Of a DNA stretch of 64,000 nt, positions 5,401 to 44,405 are shown one piece after another (position 1 is the first letter of the stretch; each line of letters opens with the position of its first letter). The stretch lies in NCBI GenBank assembly GCA_964459725.1, contig CAYWNT010000001.1, positions 91,529 through 155,528 on the forward strand. Direction: 5' to 3'. The notes beneath the pieces were generated by a model that saw nothing but the letters and a program-made list of their open reading frames with translations, ran no database searches and had not been told where the DNA came from. Source of the stretch: an uncultured Gammaproteobacteria bacterium (GTDB lineage Bacteria > Patescibacteriota > Patescibacteriia > Patescibacteriales > UBA12075). A program made the translations under genes and the position numbers.

Positions 5401-8400
5401 ACTGCTGAACAGTTGCCTTATGTTTTGATGGCTCCGTTTGATGATGTGGCCCAAGATGCGGTATTTAGTTTTAGGGCAAGAGATGATGCAACCGGCATCA
5501 ATGATCATAATGGAAGTAAGATATTTGCTCTTAATTTAGATGCCTTTGAATCACATAAGACCTATTATGCGGACACTAATACTGCAATAGCGGCCAGTCC
5601 ATCATGGACTGAGATTGGTAACCTTAATTCTGGGGGAAATTATCAACCTTCTACCACGGGAAATCAGTTTATATTTGCTTCCTGGATTGATGATGCTGCT
5701 AGTGCTTCAGCCGGAACTAATGACAGATTGCAGGTGAATGGGTCTACAGTTCCAACAGGATGGGATTGGGCACAGGGTGGAGCAGTAAGTAGAACTACTC
5801 ATGATGGAAGTGATGAAAATTTATTCAACATCTCTGCTGTAGCCAGTATTCCTACCACAGGAAATCCAATTGATATGGACGCTACGGAAATTATCAGAAA
5901 TTCTCAAATTGCAGATGAGGTCAGTATGACTGTCTTCTCTACGGAGTTAGTTGGTCAGTTAGCCCCAACCGGGAATTTTAATTCAGTTGCTCAAAAAACA
6001 GATGGTTCAAAAATAGTTGATATTTCTATTGAGATAAATGATGCTAATTCAGATAACATAACGGCTAGGATAGACTATGCAACAGGCACTACTTGTAGTT
6101 TTGTCTCTCCCGGAGATCCTACCCTGGAAGAAGCAACTACTACAATCATAGAAGATTTTGGTGATGTTCATATTGATAATGAAAGCACTTATCAGGTCGG
6201 TACAACTAGTTATGAAATTATAACTACAAGCGGGTCAAATACGGTTAATTTTGACTGGAATGCATATTTAGATTTGCCAGGAATTGAGGGAAGTTATTGT
6301 GTGCAGTTAACCGCCAATGACGGAACAGTTGATCAGAGTCCGGTAGCTACTACAACTATTTATATAGACAATATAAACCCTACAGCTCCCGGGGTCTGGA
6401 CAGTTGAAAATATTTATTATGACGCTATAGAGTTTAATTTTGGTGCTACCTCAAGTGATACGAATTTTTCTGAGTATAGAATTTATTACAAGGAAGGTAC
6501 TTCCGGAGTAAGTCAGAGTGATAACTATTGGGGATCAAGTAATGATTCTAACTTAGGCTATGATGATTTCAATGGAGCAACTAGTACCCGAGTTGGCATA
6601 CTAAAGCCTGATACTGACTATGTATTTGCAGTTTACGGTGTAGATATTTATGGTAATGCTGCTAGCTCCTTAGAGCTTACTGTCAAAACTGGAACCGGTA
6701 GAGCTAATACCGTTGTTTTCCCAGCAGGAGTTTATTCAGCTGATGGCACTACTGGGCAAAATACGGATACTGATTATACATTTAATACTTTTAATTTTGA
6801 CTTAGTTGAGACTGGGGTAAAAATTGAAAATGCTTTTGTAATCTTCGAGGCGCAATTCGAAGCTTATGTAAATAACGCTAATCCTTATACTGGTTACTCA
6901 CTTTACTTTGATACTTGTGCAGAGCCTTGTACTGCTAATGCGGTTAGCGGAACGGATGCTGCTTCTACTACCGATACTACAACTTTGGCCAATAATGAAT
7001 CGGAGAGTAATCAAGGTAAGATGATTTTTGATGTAACTGAGGAGGCTCAAATGGCAAGTTACACTGGTGGTCAAATGGAGGCACAGGTCGGTTATAGAAT
7101 AAATAATGGTCTAACTGCTAACTCTATAAGTGCTGCCCGGGCCAGGTTGGTTGTTACCTATTCTTATCATCCTGATTCAGAGTCGCTGACCAAGACAGTT
7201 GTCTATCCGCTGGAGTCGACTGCAGCAGGGGATAGTGGTTCTAGACAGTCATCTCAGGCTATATGTACGGTTGATAATAATTGTCCTTTCTTTACTTACA
7301 ACATGGATATTCCGGAGTTTAGCTCTTCTCTTGCAGATTGGTTTAGCGTGACTGGTGTTAGGGATGGTAGTACTGATTCAAGGATTGACTTAAATATTGA
7401 AGGAAATGACAACCCAAGCTCAGTCTATGTCCATGAAGGAGCACTTGGAGGTCAGCAATCAACCTATCCAAATTTGATATTTGATGATACTCCAGGATTT
7501 ACTGAGAACACAGATCAAACATTAGAATATCATGTTTACACTGGAGGAACTACTTATTTGATGGGTGGAGAAGTTTATGATACTTATACGGCTTCAGCTA
7601 CAGCTCCAATTAAAACAAGAACTGTAGTTTTTCCTGTCGGAGTTTTGAATAACGGGATCACTACCGCCACATCTTCTGGAGGGGTAGATGTTTATTTCCC
7701 AGAAAACGGAACAACAAATGGGAATGTAGATATCAAGAGAGCTTGGTTCAGGGTTAAGACCAATAATAGAGTTGATGGCTCTCAGTACATGTATCTGAGA
7801 TCAAGAGTGGGAAGCACTGCCTCTTCATCAATGTATAGTTATAATTATAGTCCAGGAGGGTCAGTTATTAAGCCAGTCTTTGATATTTATCATGTGCTTG
7901 CTACTACCACATACAGCGAGCTAGATAACGCTAACGCCACAACTCCGGTAAAGGTAAATATTGATACTAGAAACAGTACGGTTAACAACGGAGGAACTTC
8001 AGTAGAGCTGGTGGTGACATACACTTACTCTTCAGAAGCTGAAGGATACCTAACATCACTTCTTGTAAATGGTGGACAAGTTGACAAGGAAACAAATACA
8101 GCTCTAGCTACTGGAACTACTGCTGCCTTAGTATTCCCTGAGGATGAAAGTAAGAGAACCTTGCTTGCTGCTGGCATGAATGCTAGTTACTTAATCAGCG
8201 ACGGAGATGGCGGGGTGCCGGTGGGTTATACCATAGATATTAATATGTCTACCACCACTCCAGTTTGTTCGGACATATTTGAGTCTCCAACTGATGGAAT
8301 CAATGCTTTTATTGAATACACCAAGGATGTAACAGCTGCGATCTCTAACGCTCACAATACAACTTATAACACTTGTTATTCTAATGACCAGGGCGGGGAT

Positions 8401-33154: not shown

Positions 33155-33193
33155 AAATTTAAGACTGAGACGCAAGCCAATGAAAAAATAATT

Positions 33194-33229
33194 ATCTACG
33201 TAGATGTCTACGTAGACATCTACGTAGAC
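33194..33229. promoter_or_regulatory. Three abutting 12-bp palindromes (NTCTACGTAGAN x3); candidate operator array upstream of argS
   Basis: atctacgtagat / gtctacgtagac / atctacgtagac. Each contains the perfect palindrome tctacgtaga. The array lies ~30 nt upstream of a candidate promoter (TTGAAA 33260-33265, TAGAAT 33282-33287). Confidence 0.5.
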
Positions 33230-33316
33230 AGATACTAATAAAATGTATAAATTTACTCCTTGAAAAATATGAAAAGTATGTTAGAATTAGGAAACAATAG
33301 TAAAAAAGTTGAATAA

Positions 33317-38901: not shown

Positions 38902-39504
38902 ATGAAACATCCAAAAAAAGAAAGATCATTTGTGATTATTAAGCCAGATGGCGTCCAAAGATCACTGGTAGGTGATATCATCTCTAGATTTGAAAGAGCC
39001 GGTCTAAAGATCGCAGCTATGAAATTTTTTGTTCCAGCCGAAGATCAGTGCTGGGATCATTATAATAAGAATGATGCTTGGTTTACGGAAAAAGGAGAAA
39101 ATATAGTAAAAGAAAGAGAAGCAGCCGGCATGTCAGTGGATAAAGAAGCTATTGAGTATGGAAAAGATATAATAGGACAATTAGCCTCTTTTATGACTTC
39201 CGGGCCTGTTGTGGGAATGATTTTGGAAGGAAATCAGTCTGTTGGAGTGGTCAAGAAGATTGTAGGAGGAACAGAGCCTCTAACTTCTGATGTGGGTACT
39301 ATTAGAGGGGATCTAACACTTGACTCTTATGCTTTGGCTGGAGTTGACGAGAGAGCGGTCAGAAACCTGATTCATTGCAGTGACAAACCGGAAGAAGCAG
39401 AAAGAGAAATAGAGATTTGGTTTGATAAAAAAGAGATTATTGATTATAGACAAGTTCAGGAGCAAATACTTTATGATGTGAATTTGGATGGAATTTTAGA
39501 ATAA
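38902..39504 (+). CDS. ndk: Nucleoside-diphosphate kinase with a ~40-aa internal insertion
   Basis: ERSFVIIKPDGVQRSLVGDIISRFERAGLKIAAMK, SGPVVGMILEG, GTIRGD and NLIHCSD (catalytic His context). The 200-aa length exceeds the usual ~140-150 aa. Confidence 0.85.
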   Translation: MKHPKKERSFVIIKPDGVQRSLVGDIISRFERAGLKIAAMKFFVPAEDQCWDHYNKNDAWFTEKGENIVKEREAAGMSVDKEAIEYGKDIIGQLASFMTSGPVVGMILEGNQSVGVVKKIVGGTEPLTSDVGTIRGDLTLDSYALAGVDERAVRNLIHCSDKPEEAEREIEIWFDKKEIIDYRQVQEQILYDVNLDGILE

Positions 39505-39560: not shown

Positions 39561-39621
39561 GTTTATTTTTAGCATTTTTTTTATGTATTGACTTATTGTA
39601 TGAACGTGTTAAAAATAAGAT

Positions 39622-39702
39622 ATGGAAAGAATCATTCAAACAATTTTAACAACAATTAAGTCTGTCCTGCTGGCAGGCGTTATTGTGTTGAAAAAAGTTT
39701 GA
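39622..39702 (+). CDS. Leaderless 26-aa hydrophobic micro-ORF (candidate leader peptide L1): MERIIQTILTTIKSVLLAGVIVLKKV
   Basis: The ATG lies 6 nt after a candidate -10 (aaaaat 39611-16). The -35 is TTGACT at 39588-93 with a 17-nt spacer. The stop codon lies inside the first arm of the downstream alternative hairpins. The ORF is below the 60-aa cutoff of the track. Confidence 0.4.
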   Translation: MERIIQTILTTIKSVLLAGVIVLKKV

Positions 39703-39770
39703 GTGGTTTAAGATGAAATAAACAAAAAGTTTAGATAAAGACCACTCAAACTAATTGAGCGGTCTTTTTT
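39697..39770 (+). promoter_or_regulatory. Antiterminator/terminator switch downstream of L1
   Basis: Seg1 is gtttgagtggt (39697-707, containing the L1 stop). Seg2 is (g)accactcaa(ac) (39740-51). Seg3 is ttgagcggtc (39755-64) followed by T6 (39765-70). Pairings 1:2 and 2:3 are mutually exclusive. Confidence 0.55.
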
Positions 39771-39795
39771 AACACAATCAATCTGGGAGGTGGTT

Positions 39796-40011
39796 ATGGC
39801 GAGTGGGCGATCAAATCATTTGGGCAAGGAAGTAAAGGGCAGAAAGCCTGTGAAAATTTCCTTTGGAATAGATAGTGCATTTCCGGTGAATTATCTTGAT
39901 GGTTATGAGTGTGCAAATAGTAATTGCAGATCAGAGGCTGTGGTAAGAGGTGAACGAAACGTTTTTTGCAACATCTGTGGGTCAACAAAAGTAGGAGAGA
40001 GGAGTGTGTAA
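39796..40011 (+). CDS. Small zinc-ribbon protein (71 aa)
   Basis: The GGGAGG RBS lies 5 nt before ATG 39796 (the track starts at GTG 39790). It contains CANSNC...CNIC Cys pairs. Confidence 0.6.
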   Translation: MASGRSNHLGKEVKGRKPVKISFGIDSAFPVNYLDGYECANSNCRSEAVVRGERNVFCNICGSTKVGERSV

Positions 40012-40217
40012 TGGAAAAGGGAGAGTCTGGGGTAAAGCTTTATGTTGAGGTTGGTTCTTTGGAGTTTGGAGGATCACAGGAAGAGAAAGTCCGCAGTTTT
40101 TCAGAACAAGCTAAAATAGGCCGAGATAAACGGGGGATGATTAATAAGCCAGGGTATAAACCAATTGAGACCAGAGGACCGGTTTCTAGACAGAGCGTAG
40201 AGAAAATTGATTGTTGA
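40011..40217 (+). CDS. Small hypothetical protein (68 aa), translationally coupled
   Basis: The ATG at 40011 overlaps the upstream stop (TAATG). The track ORF 39966-40217 is in the same frame. The protein begins MEKGESGVKLYVEVGSLEFGG. Confidence 0.5.
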   Translation: MEKGESGVKLYVEVGSLEFGGSQEEKVRSFSEQAKIGRDKRGMINKPGYKPIETRGPVSRQSVEKIDC

Positions 40218-40455
40218 AGTTGATCTTTTATTGATCTGTAAAATGAGCAAGAGGAAAACAGCCTCAGTGATAGCTTCTAAACTTCACCCATGAGTTTAGA
40301 AACAACTAGCACACTCATTTTAGAAATCTGAAACTTCTAAGTGAAAAACATTCATTTAAGAGGTAGCAATCGGGAGAAATAGTGATCCTATTTCTCCCTC
40401 CAATTCAATTATTATTTATTAATATAATATTATTCGTAGTTACAGATTATATTTT

Positions 40456-40533
40456 ATGTATTTTCAAGAGATATTAAATATTAGAATTATTTTGAGCCTC
40501 ATTATTCTGAGTGCGCTTTTTAATACCTCTTGA
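40456..40533 (+). CDS. 25-aa Ile/Leu-rich micro-ORF (candidate leader peptide L4): MYFQEILNIRIILSLIILSALFNTS
   Basis: No Shine-Dalgarno. TATAAT at 40423-28 and gattat at 40445-50 lie upstream. The stop codon TGA (40531-33) overlaps seg1 of the downstream switch. Confidence 0.35.
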   Translation: MYFQEILNIRIILSLIILSALFNTS

Positions 40534-40589
40534 AGACGAAAATAATTTAATTAGAAGTAGGTCGTCTTTCAAGGGAAGACGATTTTTTT
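40532..40589 (+). promoter_or_regulatory. Antiterminator/terminator switch downstream of L4
   Basis: Seg1 is gaagacga (40532-39). Seg2 is tcgtctt (40562-68). Seg3 is aagacga (40576-82) followed by T7. Seg1 and seg3 have the same sequence and compete for seg2. Confidence 0.55.
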
Positions 40590-40648
40590 AGTTAAAAAGT
40601 GGCGTGTTGTTCTTTGTAAGCATCTGCCAAACAAAGGGGGTATGAGTT

Positions 40649-40945
40649 ATGTATGATGATGAAAGCGGAAGCATTGGCGAAGATGCGGCGATCACCGAGA
40701 ATCAGATGAGGAAATCATTAGGATTAGGTGAGCCTAAAATCAAAGTACTAGAAATTTTTATGTCAGAGGAGGAGCTGAGGAATAAGTTGCCGGTTGGAAA
40801 GGTGGCTGTAGCGGGAAAAAGAAAAGGGCTATTGCATCTTCATAGTGACAGACCCCTTGATCCCAGTGAAGAAGATGTAAAATTTCATTTATCTGGAGCA
40901 AAAATGATTTTTGGTGAAAAAAATGTGGTTTTAGTAGAGAGCTAA
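40649..40945 (+). CDS. Hypothetical 98-aa protein
   Basis: ORF track entry. The GGGGG RBS lies 6-7 nt upstream of the ATG. I recognise no family. Confidence 0.55.
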   Translation: MYDDESGSIGEDAAITENQMRKSLGLGEPKIKVLEIFMSEEELRNKLPVGKVAVAGKRKGLLHLHSDRPLDPSEEDVKFHLSGAKMIFGEKNVVLVES

Positions 40946-40997
40946 TTTTTTCTACTTTATCACAACCTCCCCACGAGATAAAACTTGTGGGGAGGGA

Positions 40998-41025
40998 TTG
41001 ACTTTTATAAAAACTTTGATAATAT
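40998..41025 (+). promoter_or_regulatory. Sigma70-type promoter with extended -10
   Basis: TTGACT at 40998-41003, a 16-nt spacer, then TGaTAATAT at 41017-25. Confidence 0.55.
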
Positions 41026-41031
41026 ATTCAC

Positions 41032-41106
41032 ATGAAAAAAGTTTATGTAAAAAACTTATTATTAGGTTTATTGCTGCTTTTTACGAGCGGTCTTGTTTTT
41101 GTTTGA
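41032..41106 (+). CDS. Leaderless 24-aa Leu-rich micro-ORF (candidate leucine leader peptide L2): MKKVYVKNLLLGLLLLFTSGLVFV
   Basis: The ATG lies 7 nt after the -10. Eight of 24 codons are Leu, with runs tta tta tta and tta ttg ctg ctt. It lies upstream of a terminator and a LeuA-family gene. Confidence 0.45.
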   Translation: MKKVYVKNLLLGLLLLFTSGLVFV

Positions 41107-41133
41107 AAAAGTATAACATTTCTTACAAAAAAT

Positions 41134-41159
41134 AAGACTGCCAGAATAGGCAGTTTTTT
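41134..41159 (+). terminator. Attenuator terminator between L2 and the LeuA-like gene
   Basis: actgcc (41137-42) pairs with ggcagt (41149-54), followed by a T-run to 41159. The upstream gcggtctt (41086-93, inside L2) can pair with aagactgc (41134-41) as an antiterminator. Confidence 0.5.
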
Positions 41160-41205
41160 AATTGTTCTTTAAATCTATAATTCAACCAGCATAAAGGGGG
41201 AAGTA

Positions 41206-42828
41206 ATGAGGAAAATTATTTTACGTGATGTGCTCTTGAGAGAGTCTGACCAAGTTGAAGGCGGAGCAATGTCCCCTAGGGATCAGCTGAATTATGTTCA
41301 GCTTTTGATTGAGGGAGGTATTGACGAAATTGAGGTCGGTTATCCAAGTAGCACAGCAGAGCAGTTGGCAACTTGCAAAAGAATTATAGCATTTGTAGAT
41401 GAATTTTGTACTAGAAATCCGAAGTTAAATCGTCCTCTTTTGTCAGGACTTTCTGTGGCAAGAAAGAAGTCTATTGATGCGGTGGCAGAGGCCGGTTTGG
41501 ATATTTGTCATATTTACATTCCCGCTAGTGACGAGCTTCTTCAGGCTCAGTTTGGTGATATGAAGTATGGTGAAACTCAGGAAGAGAAACGCGATTGGGT
41601 AATTAGGCAAGCTGCCAAGATGGTGAAATATGCAAAATCATTAGACTTCAAAAAGGTTCAGTATTCTCCTGAGGATGCTGGTAGAACTGGTAAGGAGTAT
41701 TTACTCCGTGTTGTTTCGTCTGTGGCTTCGGCTGGAGTTGATTATTTGAATATTCCAGACACTACAGGACATTGTATTGGTTCAGAGTTTCGTGATTTGA
41801 TTAAATGTGTTTCTGATGCCCTTGTGGGTTTTAATCAAGTTGAGATATCTGTCCATTGCCACAATGATTATGATCACTCCGTGCCCAATGCTATTCAAGC
41901 AGTGCTGGGTGGGGCAACTCAGATTGAAGGTACTTTTTACGGATTAGGAGAGCGCAGTGGGATGACCAAGTTTGAATCTGTTCTTTTGGTAATGAGCTCA
42001 AGAAAAGATATTTTTGAGGATTTCGAGATAGGATTCAAAAAGCAGGGTACAGTAAAATTGGTAAATTTTCTGGGCAACGCCCTTGGCATGCCAGTTCCCA
42101 GACATTGGCCGGTAGTTGGTATTCAAAATGGCATATGTAGCTCAGGTACACATCAGGCTATTGAAGCTAGGGCTAAGGAGGCAGGAAAACCAAGTCCTTA
42201 TTATGGATGGGATCCTAAATCGTTTGGTCACGAAAGTGTAAAAATAGTGATCAATAAATCTTCTGGTAGAATTGGCATTGGCAAGAAACTGAGAGAGCTG
42301 GGCTTCTTGGTGGCCAAAAAGGATATCTCCTTAGTTTATGATAAGGTTATGGAGATATCAGAGGCCAAGGGAGGAAAAGAGGTCGAAGAAGCAGAGCTCA
42401 TTGCTATTGCCCAGGATGTTGTCTCAGAGATTCCCTTTTATATTAATATTGACTGGTGTCAGGTGGTTGGAGGGAGAGGAACAATTCCAACCAGTACTGT
42501 AAAACTGGAAGTTAAGGGAGAGGTAAAGATTGACTCAGCAGTTGGTGATGGAACTATTGATGCTATTATGAAAGCAGTCCTTAGGACAGCGAGACAGCAT
42601 TTTCCTGCTTTAAATGATGTTGAGATCGCCTTAGACCATTGCTCCTTTGTAGGTGTCACTAAAGGTTCAGATGCTCTGGCGGATTTTTACTGTAGAATCA
42701 GGGTGGAAAACGGAGAACCTCAGCTTTTTGCTGGAAGATCTGTTCATTTGGACACTTCTCAGGCAGCAGCACAGTCATTTGCTAACTGTATTAGTTGGTT
42801 TTTGGCATCGAAAAATGGGAGTGGATAA
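41206..42828 (+). CDS. 2-isopropylmalate/citramalate/homocitrate synthase family protein (HMGL-like domain plus a LeuA-type C-terminal domain)
   Basis: EVGYPSS, IPDTTGHCIG and HCHNDYDHSVPNAIQAVLGGATQIEGTFYGLGERSGMTKFESV match the DRE-TIM aldolase motifs of the LeuA/NifV/CimA family. The C-terminal GDGTIDAIMKAV region is like the regulatory domain. The GGGGGA RBS is present. Confidence 0.8.
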   Translation: MRKIILRDVLLRESDQVEGGAMSPRDQLNYVQLLIEGGIDEIEVGYPSSTAEQLATCKRIIAFVDEFCTRNPKLNRPLLSGLSVARKKSIDAVAEAGLDICHIYIPASDELLQAQFGDMKYGETQEEKRDWVIRQAAKMVKYAKSLDFKKVQYSPEDAGRTGKEYLLRVVSSVASAGVDYLNIPDTTGHCIGSEFRDLIKCVSDALVGFNQVEISVHCHNDYDHSVPNAIQAVLGGATQIEGTFYGLGERSGMTKFESVLLVMSSRKDIFEDFEIGFKKQGTVKLVNFLGNALGMPVPRHWPVVGIQNGICSSGTHQAIEARAKEAGKPSPYYGWDPKSFGHESVKIVINKSSGRIGIGKKLRELGFLVAKKDISLVYDKVMEISEAKGGKEVEEAELIAIAQDVVSEIPFYINIDWCQVVGGRGTIPTSTVKLEVKGEVKIDSAVGDGTIDAIMKAVLRTARQHFPALNDVEIALDHCSFVGVTKGSDALADFYCRIRVENGEPQLFAGRSVHLDTSQAAAQSFANCISWFLASKNGSG

Positions 42829-42841
42829 CTCTTGATGACAA

Positions 42842-42874
42842 TAGGGGCAATATGTTAATTATTGCCCCTATTTT
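42842..42874 (+). terminator. Terminator after the LeuA-like gene
   Basis: taggggcaat (42842-51) pairs with attgccccta (42861-70), followed by tttt. Confidence 0.6.
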
Positions 42875-42900
42875 ACTAATATTAGTTAAAATAACATCTA

Positions 42901-42929
42901 TTGAATATTTTTTTCAATTATGCTATATT
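42901..42929 (+). promoter_or_regulatory. Sigma70-type promoter
   Basis: TTGAAT at 42901-06, a 17-nt spacer, then TATATT at 42924-29. Confidence 0.5.
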
Positions 42930-42937
42930 AGTTTTAT

Positions 42938-43030
42938 ATGATTAAGACATTACAAAAAACTTATTTCTATTTTTGGTTCTTCTTCTTCCGAAGTCGGAGA
43001 TTAGTTTTTTGTGGTGTTTTAACTGATTAA
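42938..43030 (+). CDS. Near-leaderless 30-aa aromatic-rich micro-ORF (candidate leader peptide L3): MIKTLQKTYFYFWFFFFRSRRLVFCGVLTD
   Basis: The ATG lies 9 nt after the -10. Nine consecutive aromatic codons (tat ttc tat ttt tgg ttc ttc ttc ttc) are followed by a terminator. Confidence 0.4.
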   Translation: MIKTLQKTYFYFWFFFFRSRRLVFCGVLTD

Positions 43031-43055
43031 GTTTGCACCATTAGGGAAAACAAAA

Positions 43056-43090
43056 CTGGTCTCCATTACGGAGGCCAGTTTTATTTTTAT
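43056..43090 (+). terminator. Terminator downstream of L3
   Basis: ctggtctcc (43056-64) pairs with ggaggccag (43070-78) with one G-U pair, followed by ttttatttttat. The upstream ggaga (42996-43000, inside L3) can pair with tctcc, but this alternative is weak. Confidence 0.6.
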
Positions 43091-43115: not shown

Positions 43116-43292
43116 ATGAAGGATATTTATGCATCGCCATGGTCAGAAGAAAGCTTGAATGCCGCCAGGGAGGAAGTCCAATCAAGCGCTGTGAAAGGAA
43201 CAGCTATAGAGGAGTCAAGAATAGGTTTGGCAATGCAAGTTAAAAATCCACCGTCAAGAATACAGGAGAAAGGAGGGGAAAATGCAGAGTAG
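43116..43292 (+). CDS. Hypothetical 58-aa protein (MKDIYASPWSEESLNAAREEV...)
   Basis: A strong RBS (AGAGGAGG) lies 6 nt upstream. The ORF is below the track cutoff and I translated it by hand. Confidence 0.5.
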   Translation: MKDIYASPWSEESLNAAREEVQSSAVKGTAIEESRIGLAMQVKNPPSRIQEKGGENAE

Positions 43293-43452
43293 GCCTGAAG
43301 TATTAACAAATGCAATGAAAGGCAGAGGCAAAGTTGCCGAGAATAGCGAAAAAACTGCTATTTTAAAGGCGAATGGAGAGCAAGTACCTCGCAAGCCTCC
43401 ACCCACAATAGAGCCAAAACCGACACATGCTGGTGATGATGCAGGTTTTTAA
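43282..43452 (+). CDS. Hypothetical 56-aa protein (MQSRPEVLTNAMKGRGKV...PPPTIEPKPTHAGDDAGF), overlapping the previous ORF by 11 nt
   Basis: The RBS AAAGGAGGGG is embedded in the end of the upstream ORF. The ATG at 43282 is in the +1 frame relative to it. Confidence 0.5.
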   Translation: MQSRPEVLTNAMKGRGKVAENSEKTAILKANGEQVPRKPPPTIEPKPTHAGDDAGF

Positions 43453-43462
43453 GGCAACAAAA

Positions 43463-43528
43463 ACCTCGGAAGCGTAGCTTCCGAGGTCGTTTTTTTTAAA
43501 CCATCAAGTTGTGCTTGGTGGTTTTTTT
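43463..43528 (+). terminator. Two back-to-back rho-independent terminators
   Basis: The first pairs acctcggaagc with gcttccgaggt (43463-87) and has T8. The second pairs aaccatcaag with cttggtggtt (43499-523) and has T7. Confidence 0.8.
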
Positions 43529-43929
43529 ATGGTTAATCAAAGACGATGGCCTTATTTAATTTTATATTAATATTTGACTAATACAATGCTAACATGGGTG
43601 TGGTTTAATAAAGGTGAAGATAAAAAGAGGGCACAAGAAATTGGGGATAAAAACAATTTTTTTGAGTACAAACCGAAAAAAAGAAAATCTCAAAAGCACT
43701 TGACAAAAAGAAATATTTAAGGTATGATAAACGATTCTAGCTCATTTTACCTTAAATAAGTTAATAGACTGTTAAAAAGTCTGTGCAAAACCCTGTGTAA
43801 AAAAATGGCAAAAATTGTTTAAAACTAGCCCAAAAACACCCTTGCAAAAAAATAAATTTTAGCTATAATATACACACAAACAAAAAACTAAAACACATAC
43901 ACACATTTTTCTTCCTGGAGGGGATGGAC

Positions 43930-43995
43930 ATGAAAGACAAAGCAAGACGGATGATTTACATCATGGACGTGGTTGCAGAAGAAGAAGGAAGATAA
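43930..43995 (+). CDS. Possible 21-aa micro-ORF (MKDKARRMIYIMDVVAEEEGR)
   Basis: The GGAGGGG RBS lies 6 nt upstream. It is preceded by a near-consensus promoter (cttgca..N17..tataat, ~43842-43870) and a CA-rich leader. A hairpin plus T7 follows (~44016-44058). Confidence 0.3.
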   Translation: MKDKARRMIYIMDVVAEEEGR

Positions 43996-44405
43996 AAGGC
44001 AATAATGCCAAAAAAAGTTTTTCGAGGGTTTTTAGCACAAGCTAACAGCCCTCTTTTTTTATTTAATTTTTCTATATTTTGTTAGTTAGGATAAAATATG
44101 GTAAAATTAGATTGAAATAGCTTTTTTAAGGTTTATTTCGAATTGTTCATTACAAAAACCAGAAAAAGGAGAGTCAATATATTTATCGTTAGCGGTTGAT
44201 ATTTTTTTAAATTTGCACCAGAGCAGAGTTAAAAAGGAAGAGTGAAGAGTGTAAATTTCTGAATGTGGTACAAATATGACAAACCAGATGTGATATTTCT
44301 CTAAAGAGTTATATGAGGGGTTTTATTCCAAGTGGCTTCTGATCAGGAAGCGAAGAAGTCAAGAATTTATAGTATTGTATTATAATACTAGGGGGAGGAG
44401 AGATC

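Follow-up and report, generated by a model that had tools for sequence, protein, structure and literature searches.

Introduction

Classical transcription attenuation has been summarised in PMC4007540, citing Yanofsky 1981, and leaderless leader-peptide attenuators are known in Deinococcus deserti (PMC4007540) and in Corynebacterium (PMC5784534). The mechanism itself is therefore not new, and the original prediction for the DNA described here went too far in treating the leaderless arrangement as a departure from known attenuation. Its description of the genome as biosynthetically minimal likewise went beyond what 64 kb of sequence can support. A literature search has revealed no paper describing attenuation for Patescibacteria.

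Within the 64,000-nucleotide stretch of DNA that was analysed (the window), which comes from a Patescibacteria (CPR) genome, 3.5 kb contain four cassettes in the order L1 (39588-39773), L4 (40456-40592), L2 (40998-41160) and L3 (42901-43090), all on the + strand, like every feature of the window described below. Judging from their sequence and from the comparison with relatives, these cassettes are very probably four classical ribosome-mediated leader-peptide transcription attenuators of the type found in trp, leu and phe operons.

Structure of the four leader cassettes

Each cassette displays the same succession of elements: segment 1 (codons 2-8 of the upstream ORF, uORF), the regulatory codon run, segment 2, which is located at or over the leader stop codon, and segments 3:4, which constitute an intrinsic terminator. 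Segment 1, the 5' part of the uORF, pairs with segment 2, so that each cassette is a full four-segment attenuator, and all four are intact, each having a start, a codon run, a stop that falls within segment 2, three helices and a U-tract. The pairing between segments 1 and 2 had been overlooked in the original prediction.

In L1, the promoter-like site (39588..39616) was found by the scan as TTGACT-17-AAAAAT, or can be read by eye as TTGACT-16-TAAAAA, and the ATG is located 5-6 nt past the -10. The leader ORF MERIIQTILTTIKSVLLAGVIVLKKV (39622..39702; 26 codons, no Shine-Dalgarno sequence, SD) is rich in Ile, Leu, Val and Thr. In the MFE fold, segment 1 GAAUCAUUCAAAC (39629..39641) is paired with segment 2 GUUUGAGUGGUUU (39697..39709), which holds the UGA stop and has segment 3 as its other possible partner, and segments 3:4 form the intrinsic terminator AAGACCACUCAAA-loop-UUGAGCGGUCUU followed by U6 (39737..39773), which is missing from the terminator scan because of one A.C mismatch in the stem. 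Two genes for orphan proteins follow, g71 (39796..40011; 71 aa, Cys-rich with CxxxxC...CxxC, SD GGGAGG, codon-usage score 0.154, no Pfam match) and g68 (40011..40217; 68 aa), whose start overlaps the g71 stop. A hairpin between g68 and L4 (40372..40398), with an invariant loop GTGATCC and a covarying stem, was seen only in the window and in the related contigs L086 and L104, and may mark where the L1 transcription unit ends.

The L4 leader ORF MYFQEILNIRIILSLIILSALFNTS (40456..40533; 25 codons, Ile-rich, no SD) had no match in the promoter scan, and by eye a TATAAT with a poor -35 can be read at 40423-40428. The fold places segment 1 at 40461..40478, segment 2, which holds the UGA stop, at 40519..40536, and segments 3:4, an intrinsic terminator also listed by the scan, at 40559..40592. 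The gene g98 (40649..40945) encodes a protein of 98 aa whose family is very small, with neither Pfam nor NCBIfam match, and the scan listed a terminator-like hairpin 3' of it (40966..40995).

L2 is preceded by the promoter-like site TTGACT-16-TAATAT with an upstream TG (40998..41025, scan), the ATG being 6 nt past the -10. Its leader ORF MKKVYVKNLLLGLLLLFTSGLVFV (41032..41106; 24 codons, 7 Leu in 9 codons, no SD) includes segment 2 GCGGUCUUGUUUUUGU (41086..41101), the 5' arm of the anti-terminator, and is followed by segment 3, the terminator hairpin 41134-41157 and the U-tract (41129..41160, scan and fold). The downstream gene (41206..42828) encodes a LeuA-like protein of the 2-isopropylmalate-synthase family, with HMGL-like and LeuA_dimer domains, that belongs to a Patescibacteria-specific clade; its probable terminator ATAGGGGCAAT-loop-ATTGCCCCTAT plus UUUU (42841..42875) was read by eye and is absent from the scan list.

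In L3, the scan found the promoter-like site TTGAAT-17-TATATT with an upstream TG (42901..42929), 8 nt before the ATG. The leader ORF MIKTLQKTYFYFWFFFFRSRRLVFCGVLTD (42938..43030; 30 codons, no SD) has 9 consecutive Phe/Tyr/Trp codons; segment 1 (codons 2-8, 42942..42961) pairs with segment 2 (42995..43022), which pairs alternatively with segment 3 through GGAGAUUAGUUUU, and segments 3:4 (43052..43090) form an intrinsic terminator with a 13-bp stem and a U-rich tail. Two hydrophilic orphan proteins are encoded behind it, g58 (43116..43292; 58 aa, strong SD, codon-usage score 0.260, no Pfam match) and g56 (43282..43452; 56 aa, score 0.254), which overlaps the end of g58.

What had been described for these cassettes was recovered: four micro-ORFs of 24-30 codons, the ATG close behind the -10 (5-8 nt in L1, L2 and L3) with no SD in any leader, a hairpin with a U-tract 3' of every micro-ORF (for L1, from the MFE fold) and small ORFs with strong SDs downstream. 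The claimed sigma70-like promoters correspond to scan matches at L1-L3 but not at L4, already considered unclear.

Folding and composition of the leaders

The terminator scan has revealed 17 terminator-like sites in the region against 3.4 +/- 1.9 in shuffles, including the leader terminators 40559-40585 (L4), 41134-41157 (L2) and 43052-43082 (L3). Promoter-like matches as a class were not enriched in this AT-rich region (13 found, 15.8 expected from shuffles), and these putative sites draw their weight from being found again at corresponding places in relatives. Equivalents of the L2 promoter are present in L087, L088, L089, L092, L094 and L100, those of L3 in L092 and L086 (with a spacing of 6 nt), and TTGACA-16-TAAAAT precedes the L1-type leader of L104 in the same arrangement as in the window.

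The 1:2 and 3:4 helices are part of the MFE fold in L1, L4 and L3; in L2, whose 1:2 helix is weak, the MFE fold has the 2:3 helix. The alternative pairing proposed for the 5' arm of the terminator was borne out by 2:3 helix energies of -18.9 (L1), -14.2 (L4), -19.7 (L2) and -26.0 (L3) kcal/mol. Whole-cassette folds gave z values against shuffles of -7.3 (L1), -4.0 (L4), -4.2 (L2) and -7.8 (L3), and for each cassette none of 200 shuffles folded as well as the native sequence.

The composition of the leaders was ranked among the ATG-ORFs of the window with a length of 15-60 aa (453 in total), counting each residue class per 9 codons. The amino acid biases noted originally hold for L2 and L3, which are first for Leu (7/9) and for Phe/Tyr/Trp (9/9), respectively, but are not exceptional for L4 (Ile, 5/9) and L1 (Ile/Leu/Val/Thr, 8/9), since each of these scores is reached by 12/453 ORFs, L4 or L1 itself counted; for these two leaders composition alone is therefore weak evidence.

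Conservation of the leaders in related genomes

A search for the cassettes in relatives, as the original prediction had proposed, found all four leader types again in contigs of related Patescibacteria, where the peptides and the identity of the codon run are conserved and compensatory base changes occur. The Leu-type leader, with the peptide consensus N-L-L-L-x-L-L-L-L...R-V-A, is present in 11 genomes, each time upstream of a LeuA-like gene, followed in some of them by leuCD-leuB. Its anti-terminator is paired in 89.8% of cells, with 5 of 8 pairs changed on both sides and 0/500 shuffles as high, and its terminator in 88.6%, with double changes in 5 pairs; pairing reaches 94.9% in each of the two helices of the aromatic-type leader (6 genomes), with double changes in 5 pairs. 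All these values come from alignments in which the pairing motifs served as manually set anchors and which therefore lean towards structure. In the window L2, segments 2, 3 and 4 have changed in concert from GGUGG/CCACC/GGUGG to GCGGU/ACUGC/GCAGU.

The aromatic-type leader is located directly upstream of DAHP synthase in L100 and precedes a 102-aa gene and prephenate dehydratase in L086. In L103 it is followed by a 108-aa gene, a terminator-like hairpin and PDT-TyrA/CM-aminotransferase, and because of the intervening hairpin these prephenate dehydratase-region enzymes are only candidate targets. Two further contigs were found for each of the other types: the Ile type (homologue MNFQDLLIKESILLIIIDECLIGS in L086@391 and L104@593, two copies nearly identical to each other) and the BCAA type (MFQAVRTILSSISLNILLGLVVVIL at L103@9533 and MKRTILTISVFFAAIFGLDVILIES at L104@97, whose 1:2 helix and terminator are arranged as in L1). 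In the clade, a Val/Ile leader precedes an ilvA-like/ilvE/ilvD/ilvB cluster and an Ile leader precedes a citramalate-synthase-like gene.

A protein, a tRNA or a small molecule might select between anti-terminator and terminator independently of translation, the ORFs being by-products of T-rich sequence. AT-rich DNA readily gives Phe-, Leu- or Ile-rich ORFs, L1 and L4 are not outliers, no uORF has an SD, and in Streptomyces leader-like ORFs before ilvB and leuA do not behave as classical attenuators (PMC1262725). This explanation is nevertheless very improbable, as the ORF is kept with its start and frame, and with a stop inside or just after segment 2, in 11 genomes (Leu) and 6 genomes (aromatic) although their nucleotides have diverged, the 75 Leu codons of the 11 Leu runs use all six synonymous codons, the Rfam search gave no match to a T-box, riboswitch or other family, and L2 and L3 rank first for their residue classes.

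It is extremely improbable that the micro-ORFs encode small hydrophobic membrane peptides, type-I-toxin-like (as had been suggested) or other, as real products with their own promoter and terminator, the alternative pairings being incidental. The hydrophobicity of the peptides suffices for a membrane helix, each has a terminator and a promoter-like site, and trans action of a leader peptide is known from Sinorhizobium (peTrpL, PMC7298713). However, relatives keep the RNA segments and, in each run, one amino acid class (Leu, or Phe/Tyr/Trp), the run fits the pathway of the genes that follow, the 2:3 and 3:4 helices both covary, and a non-rigorous look revealed no conserved antisense RNA feature. 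The conserved ends of the peptides correspond to segments 1 and 2, which explains their conservation; in the aromatic leader the conserved ends MIKTLQKT and VFCGVLT are explained by a strong 1:2 helix. Conserved peptides, two covarying helices and the match between codon run and pathway in relatives all favour ribosome-mediated attenuation, as originally proposed.

Proposed attenuation mechanism

Transcription of L1-L3 would start at, or a few nt before, the AUG of the leader ORF, and we infer leaderless translation from the -10 to ATG spacing only; L4 may have its own weak promoter or be transcribed from upstream. Segment 1 (leader codons ~2-8), segment 2 (at or over the leader stop), segment 3 (5' arm of the terminator) and segment 4 (3' arm and U-tract) would then operate as follows. 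With no ribosome on the leader, 1:2 and 3:4 would form and transcription would stop; a ribosome reaching the stop codon would cover segment 2, again allowing 3:4 to form and transcription to stop. When the cognate charged tRNA is scarce, the ribosome would stall on the codon run, which separates segments 1 and 2, and would mask segment 1, so that 2:3 would pair, the terminator would be blocked and the downstream genes would be transcribed.

Judging from the codon runs, the signals would be Leu for L2, with the LeuA-like gene as target; Phe/Tyr/Trp for L3, with g58 and g56; Ile (plus Leu) for L4, with g98; and Ile/Leu/Val (plus Thr) for L1, with g71, g68 and possibly, by read-through, L4-g98.

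Small genes behind the putative attenuators

The gene content at the ndk-adjacent site differs between genomes, some of which hold full leu/ilv operons or aromatic genes, whereas the LeuA-like gene is the sole such biosynthetic gene of the window there and L1, L4 and L3 are followed by small, fast-evolving orphan proteins (71+68, 98 and 58+56 aa). At the loci of the fetched relatives no homologue of g71, g68, g58 or g56 was found, not even in L103, with which the window shares 75% identity in Ndk. The g98 family, always found 3' of a BCAA-type leader, has homologues in L103 (P0122), L086 (P0123) and L104 (P0124), together with an L4-type leader in the last two, and the g98 of the window shares only 32% identity with its L103 homologue.

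Since three attenuators do not precede biosynthetic genes and their targets lack detectable homologues even in L103, these units could be relics: L2 would be functional, and L1, L4 and L3 would be left over from lost ilv/aro operons, with small ORFs that are non-functional or accidental and nothing of consequence regulated. Such decay is unlikely, because every element of the four cassettes is intact, the L3 leader is nearly identical to those of L103 and of the more distant L094, and the small ORFs all have strong SDs, with in-frame codon-usage scores (0.15-0.26) that fall among those of real genes (0.26 +/- 0.10) and exceed the spurious-ORF mean (0.02 +/- 0.15). Small genes are also located directly behind attenuators in L086, L089, L094, L103 and L104.

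With four functional attenuators as the preferred reading, the window would represent a gene-poor version of the locus that has kept the sensors, with small orphan proteins now under the control of three of them. Two features are unusual: the phylum, and the predicted control of tiny orphan proteins, instead of biosynthetic enzymes, by three of the four putative attenuators.

Architecture and folding of the cassettes

The four leader-peptide attenuator cassettes L1 (39588-39773), L4 (40456-40592), L2 (40998-41160) and L3 (42901-43090) precede, respectively, the genes g71 and g68, the gene g98, a LeuA-like gene, and the genes g58 and g56 (the numbers being the lengths in amino acids of the encoded proteins). 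An ORF listing has returned the four micro-ORFs exactly as given in the original prediction, each of them followed by a hairpin and a U-tract. In all four cassettes the leader ORF is separated from the first structural gene by a Rho-independent terminator that ends 23-57 nt upstream of the downstream start codon. Three of the four are listed by the terminator scan; the L1 terminator, with one A.C mismatch, is absent from the scan and present in the fold. In the region as a whole the scan detected 17 terminator-like sites, versus 3.4 +/- 1.9 in shuffled sequences. Sigma-70-like hexamers were found at L1, L2 and L3, those of L2 and L3 carrying an extended -10 TG, and no promoter passing the scan was found at L4; with 13 found versus 15.8 expected, promoter-like matches show no enrichment in this AT-rich DNA. 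The distance from the end of the -10 to the ATG is 5-8 nt in L1-L3, no Shine-Dalgarno sequence was found at the leader ORFs of the window, and strong GGAGG-type ribosome-binding sites were read at all the downstream genes (g71/g68, g98, LeuA-like and g58/g56).

Each cassette was folded from the AUG to the U-tract and compared with shuffled sequences, yielding z values of -7.3 (L1), -4.0 (L4), -4.2 (L2) and -7.8 (L3). The leaders, of 130-155 nt, are wholly accounted for by the upstream ORF and four pairing segments, with a 1:2 hairpin in the leader ORF, a 2:3 anti-terminator and a 3:4 terminator. The minimum free energy structures of L1, L4 and L3 contain a long 1:2 hairpin that encloses the hydrophobic codon run, plus the 3:4 terminator, with segment 1 formed by leader codons 2-8 approximately and segment 2 located at or over the leader stop codon, whereas that of L2 is the anti-terminator. 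Folded alone, the 2:3 helices have energies of -18.9 (L1), -14.2 (L4), -19.7 (L2) and -26.0 kcal/mol (L3). The 1:2 pairing is strong in L1, L4, L3 and their relatives; it is weak in L2 of the window and clear in four related Leu-family loci (L094, L087, L088 and L089). The leader stop codon is placed inside segment 2 in L1 and L4, 3 nt past it in L2 and 6 nt past it in L3. The competition between 2:3 and 3:4 pairing that had been proposed for these sites is borne out by the folds, while segment 1 had been overlooked: the cassettes are full four-segment attenuators of the trp/leu/phe design.

Other readings of these elements were also considered. A T-box or riboswitch has been ruled out, as no aptamer is present and no Rfam match was obtained. 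The micro-ORF peptides are hydrophobic, and in the window scan the few minus-strand promoter-like matches (e.g. 40572-40544) were at chance level; type I toxins, the alternative that accompanied the original prediction, are considered a very improbable reading of the micro-ORFs.

Codon runs of the leader peptides

The composition of the leaders was compared with that of the 453 ATG-initiated ORFs of 15-60 amino acids present in the window. L2, with seven Leu in nine codons, ranks first of the 453 for Leu, and L3, with Phe, Tyr or Trp in nine of nine codons, ranks first for that class. The runs of L4 (five Ile in nine codons) and L1 (Ile, Leu, Val or Thr in eight of nine) are weaker, each being equalled by 12 of the 453 ORFs, themselves included. 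All four leaders carry such a run, and the runs are conserved in relatives. A scan of the whole window for terminators preceded by a short ORF has recovered L4, L2 and L3 and no further hydrophobic-run cassette elsewhere in the 64 kb. Among the intergenic sites of that scan, L2 and L3 have the strongest anti-terminator duplexes (-18.0 and -20.0 kcal/mol), and the L4 duplex (-10.0 kcal/mol) is within the range of other sites.

A different short ORF was observed downstream, at 43842-44056, where a promoter-like TTGCAA-16-TATAAT is followed by a Shine-Dalgarno sequence, a hydrophilic ORF of 21-23 codons and a terminator-like hairpin; this ORF, MKDKARRMIYIMDVVAEEEGR (43931-43995), is not of the hydrophobic-leader type and has a negative codon score.

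The LeuA-like gene and the Leu leader family

The LeuA-like protein is a member of a Patescibacteria-specific clade, showing 44-63% identity to about 47 proteins, several of them named 'Patescibacteria group bacterium', and about 32% to ordinary LeuA. A contig scan with this single protein as query gave no match, and a scan with the full LeuA alignment relied on generic motifs, giving only true LeuA genes of other phyla; the metagenome scan with a clade-specific LeuA sub-alignment produced six useful loci. A total of 14 related contigs were fetched (loci L090 and L101 share one contig). Five contigs with an identical LeuA-like protein represent the same population and hold no variants in the region, so that a selection test is impossible.

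Of the 11 related contigs with the LeuA-like gene, 10 have a Leu leader ORF with the motif N-L-L-L-x-L-L-L-L ahead of it. The R-V-A codons that follow the run, CGGGUGGC, are segment 2, and the terminator downstream of it has the form GCCACCC-loop-GGGUGG-U(n). The 75 Leu codons of the Leu-family runs include all six Leu codons, which indicates that selection acts on the amino acid. In alignments with windows anchored by hand on the pairing motifs, the Leu anti-terminator was 89.8% paired, with five of eight pairs changed on both sides, a result reached by none of 500 shuffles (slid controls, 32-49%), and the Leu terminator was 88.6% paired, with five pairs showing double changes. In the window copy, L2, segments 2, 3 and 4 have changed in concert.

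In the higher-GC relatives (L090/L101 at 7674, L091 at 2899, L093 at 3244 and L102 at 7828) the Leu leader is without its own promoter, and it either overlaps the stop codon of a gene for a coiled-coil protein lying upstream or begins no more than 15 nt past that codon, which suggests translational coupling rather than leaderless initiation in these organisms.

Aromatic, Ile and BCAA leaders

The aromatic leader has been found again in five related loci (L103, L094, L092, L086 and L100). In the hand-anchored alignment of this family both helices are 94.9% paired, with five pairs showing double changes, and segments 1 and 2, which correspond to the conserved ends of the peptide (MIKTLQKT and VFCGVLT), form a helix of about 20 bp. 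The distance from the -10 to the ATG is 6 nt in the aromatic leaders of L092 and L086 and 9-40 nt in other members of the leader families. Genes of the cognate pathway lie behind this leader: DAHP synthase directly in L100, prephenate dehydratase (PDT) after a 102-aa gene in L086, and, in L103, a 108-aa gene and a terminator-like hairpin followed by PDT, TyrA/chorismate mutase and an aminotransferase.

The Ile-type leader L4 is found again before g98 homologues in L086 and L104, two loci nearly identical to each other, with segments 1-4 conserved. The BCAA-type leader L1 recurs with its layout unchanged in L104 and L103, and in the latter it is followed by a Cys-rich 69-aa gene and a g98 homologue. 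For L1 and L4, anti-terminator versus terminator pairing was seen by inspection in two further copies each. According to the window energies and to the hand-anchored Leu and aromatic alignments, 2:3 pairing is exclusive of 3:4 pairing and the helices covary.

In this clade a Val/Ile leader is also located ahead of an ilvA-like/ilvE/ilvD/ilvB cluster and an Ile leader ahead of a citramalate-synthase-like gene. The first gene behind the Val/Ile leader (L101, 14006-15868; L102, 12945-14795) encodes a PALP-family, threonine-dehydratase-like enzyme fused to a LeuA_dimer regulatory domain, which is an unusual domain combination. An extra leader-like upstream ORF of consensus MKYSA[LI]KTNYGFKG..TI[YF]MVWF[HY]V.APGPG, with a terminator, was observed in three loci (L101, ~6023-6930; L102, ~5908-6760; L093, ~1700-1840), and behind it lie a conserved GC-rich stretch of about 250 nt that appears to be structured, a 58-aa gene and a second conserved structured stretch. 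This region of the relatives has no Rfam match at gathering score, and the ORF and its structured stretches are absent from the window.

The four-segment folds, the conserved runs and the covarying helices in relatives support the ribosome-mediated attenuation originally predicted, and with it classical attenuation as the mechanism of the window cassettes. Leader translation, transcription starts and conditional read-through are all predicted from the nucleotide sequence. RiPP precursor peptides have been ruled out, as no modifying enzymes are encoded nearby and the runs match the pathway genes in relatives.

Gene content of the locus and target genes

The region belongs to a plus-strand gene run that encodes, in this order, GlyRS, a protein of metallo-beta-lactamase fold, a response regulator and Ndk (38902-39504), followed by the four cassettes and then by unannotated genes. 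The order Lactamase_B, response regulator, Ndk, variable island and, further on, DUF5671 is common to the window, L103, L101 and L102, and the L103 Ndk is 75% identical to that of the window. The island combines leuA-leuCD-leuB with an ilv operon in L093 and L102; L101 has these genes too, but there leuCD and leuB are encoded on the opposite strand. Aromatic pathway genes occupy the island in L103, LeuA accompanies DAHP synthase in L100 and PDT in L086, and the window has none of these pathway genes but the LeuA-like one. The site next to ndk therefore differs in gene content between genomes, and the window is a gene-poor version of it.

Several other features were observed in the window. A hairpin that separates the g68-type gene from the L4 cassette (40372-40398, and also L086, ~336-364, and L104, ~536-564) has an invariant 7-nt loop, GTGATCC, on a covarying stem of 10-11 bp followed by CCAATT; it was found nowhere else in the fetched loci and might serve for weak termination, for processing or for protein binding. 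Two back-to-back terminator hairpins follow g56 (43463-43487 and 43498-43524), the first of which reads as a minus-strand terminator too. Upstream of the cassettes, a 38-nt near-perfect palindrome, tgtctacgtagatgtctacgtagacatctacgtagata, lies between the NUDIX and ArgRS genes (33193-33230), and one open reading frame, 8899 codons long, extends over 27 kb of the plus strand (2413-29112).

Only L2 has a cognate-pathway target in the window, whereas in relatives the leader families have such targets (leuCD/leuB, ilv genes and DAHP synthase, and, further downstream, PDT). The targets of L1, L4 and L3 in the window are orphans with no Pfam or NCBIfam match. Searches of every fetched locus by tblastn and all-against-all blastp, the close relative L103 among them, gave no homologue of g71, g68, g58 or g56, nor were these proteins detectable as pieces of DAHP synthase, PDT or any other enzyme of these loci. 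The codon-usage scores of the target ORFs (0.15-0.26) fit those of real genes (0.26 +/- 0.10; spurious ORFs, 0.02 +/- 0.15).

The g98 protein belongs to a family of four members, carried by the window and three contigs (the nearly identical L086 and L104, and L103), always behind an Ile/BCAA-type leader, which fits a real, conserved regulatory link. A word-indexed search with g98 retrieved only g98 itself, an exhaustive HMMER search retrieved one relative, and the AlphaFold2 models were unusable both without an alignment (pLDDT 39) and with the 4-sequence alignment (pLDDT 42). A profile match to the staphylococcal enterotoxin-like toxin X among PDB sequences (E 2.7e-6) has been taken as chance because its score sums two weak stretches (i-E 0.005 and 13).

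With orphan targets behind them, L1, L4 and L3 could be regarded as relic attenuators, a reading that we consider improbable. A less remote, still tentative proposal is that they operate as stand-alone sensors of tRNA charging, at a site from which the leu, ilv and aromatic pathway genes are absent except for the LeuA-like gene. In its strong form, the attenuators would have been kept and would now gate fast-evolving micro-proteins as starvation effectors, not biosynthetic enzymes. The micro-proteins concerned would, with similar doubt, be the Cys-rich g71 with g68, the g98 family, and the hydrophilic g58 with g56, and such effectors might conceivably be growth-arrest or host-interaction factors of an episymbiont.

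Comparison with known attenuation systems

Leader-peptide attenuation is among the oldest known RNA-based control mechanisms. The Patescibacteria cassettes resemble the enterobacterial trpL, leuL, pheL, ilvL and thrL systems in the short leader ORF with a codon run for the regulated amino acid, in the four RNA segments that form 1:2, the 2:3 anti-terminator and the 3:4 intrinsic terminator, in the stop codon set so that a terminating ribosome would mask segment 2, and in the association of a Leu run with leuA and, in relatives, of an aromatic run with aromatic-pathway genes. They differ in that the leader ORFs lack a Shine-Dalgarno sequence and appear, from their promoter spacing, to be leaderless or nearly so, in that the peptides are longer and more uniformly hydrophobic, in that small orphan proteins, not enzymes, follow three of the four copies in the window, and in the phylum itself. 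At gathering score, no Rfam family, including Leu_leader, Phe_leader, His_leader, Thr_leader, Trp_leader and leu/phe leader, matched the window or seven related loci, and at E<=10 no useful match was found in the window, the best sub-threshold one being Phe_leader (23.5 bits versus a gathering score of 55).

Leaderless leader ORFs have been described in Corynebacterium (PMC5784534) and in Deinococcus deserti, where 14 are predicted (PMC4007540); examples from these papers are the leu leader of C. diphtheriae, MNRANLLLLRRGGSQA, and a leaderless ilvB leader, MNIIRLVVITTRRLP. Points in common are a peptide rich in the cognate residue, targets in amino-acid biosynthesis and a transcription start at the leader AUG, which was mapped by RNA-seq in those organisms, whereas here it is deduced from the -10 spacing. 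Those leaders are shorter (10-16 aa) and belong to lineages unrelated to Patescibacteria. The L089 leader, MNRAIPQNLLLSLLLLKSPR, resembles the MNRA..LLLL..R pattern of these organisms, which may be convergence.

Actinobacteria and Firmicutes have leader peptides as well (PMC1262725, PMC2965389, PMC5794164), among them a Leu-rich attenuator peptide in the ilv-leu operon of Staphylococcus aureus and the Firmicutes his leader peptides (PMC5794164; PMC2965389). The S. aureus and Firmicutes cases are alike as leader-peptide attenuation outside Proteobacteria and Actinobacteria, and they indicate a phylogenetically widespread mechanism, but their sequences are unrelated, their initiation is SD-dependent, they work alongside CodY or T-boxes, and each operon has one attenuator, in contrast to the four within 3.5 kb found here. 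In Sinorhizobium meliloti, attenuation yields trans-acting products, the rnTrpL sRNA and the peTrpL peptide (PMC7298713, PMC7968998). By analogy, the terminated leader transcripts and the peptides described here could be products in themselves, which would be relevant where the downstream genes are orphans. A full-text literature search returned no paper tying attenuation or leader peptides to Patescibacteria/CPR; the mechanism is known, and the phylum is new within the searched literature.

Biological significance

The results support the extension of classical leader-peptide attenuation to Patescibacteria/CPR. Covariance models for the annotation of CPR genomes could be built from the conserved leader families, of which there are four to six (Leu, aromatic, Ile, BCAA and Val/Ile). 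Some members of this lineage have a regulated island of BCAA and aromatic biosynthesis beside ndk, which bears on CPR metabolic evolution because auxotrophy is the usual description of CPR bacteria. Three of the sensors precede small orphan proteins, which may be effectors of amino-acid starvation.
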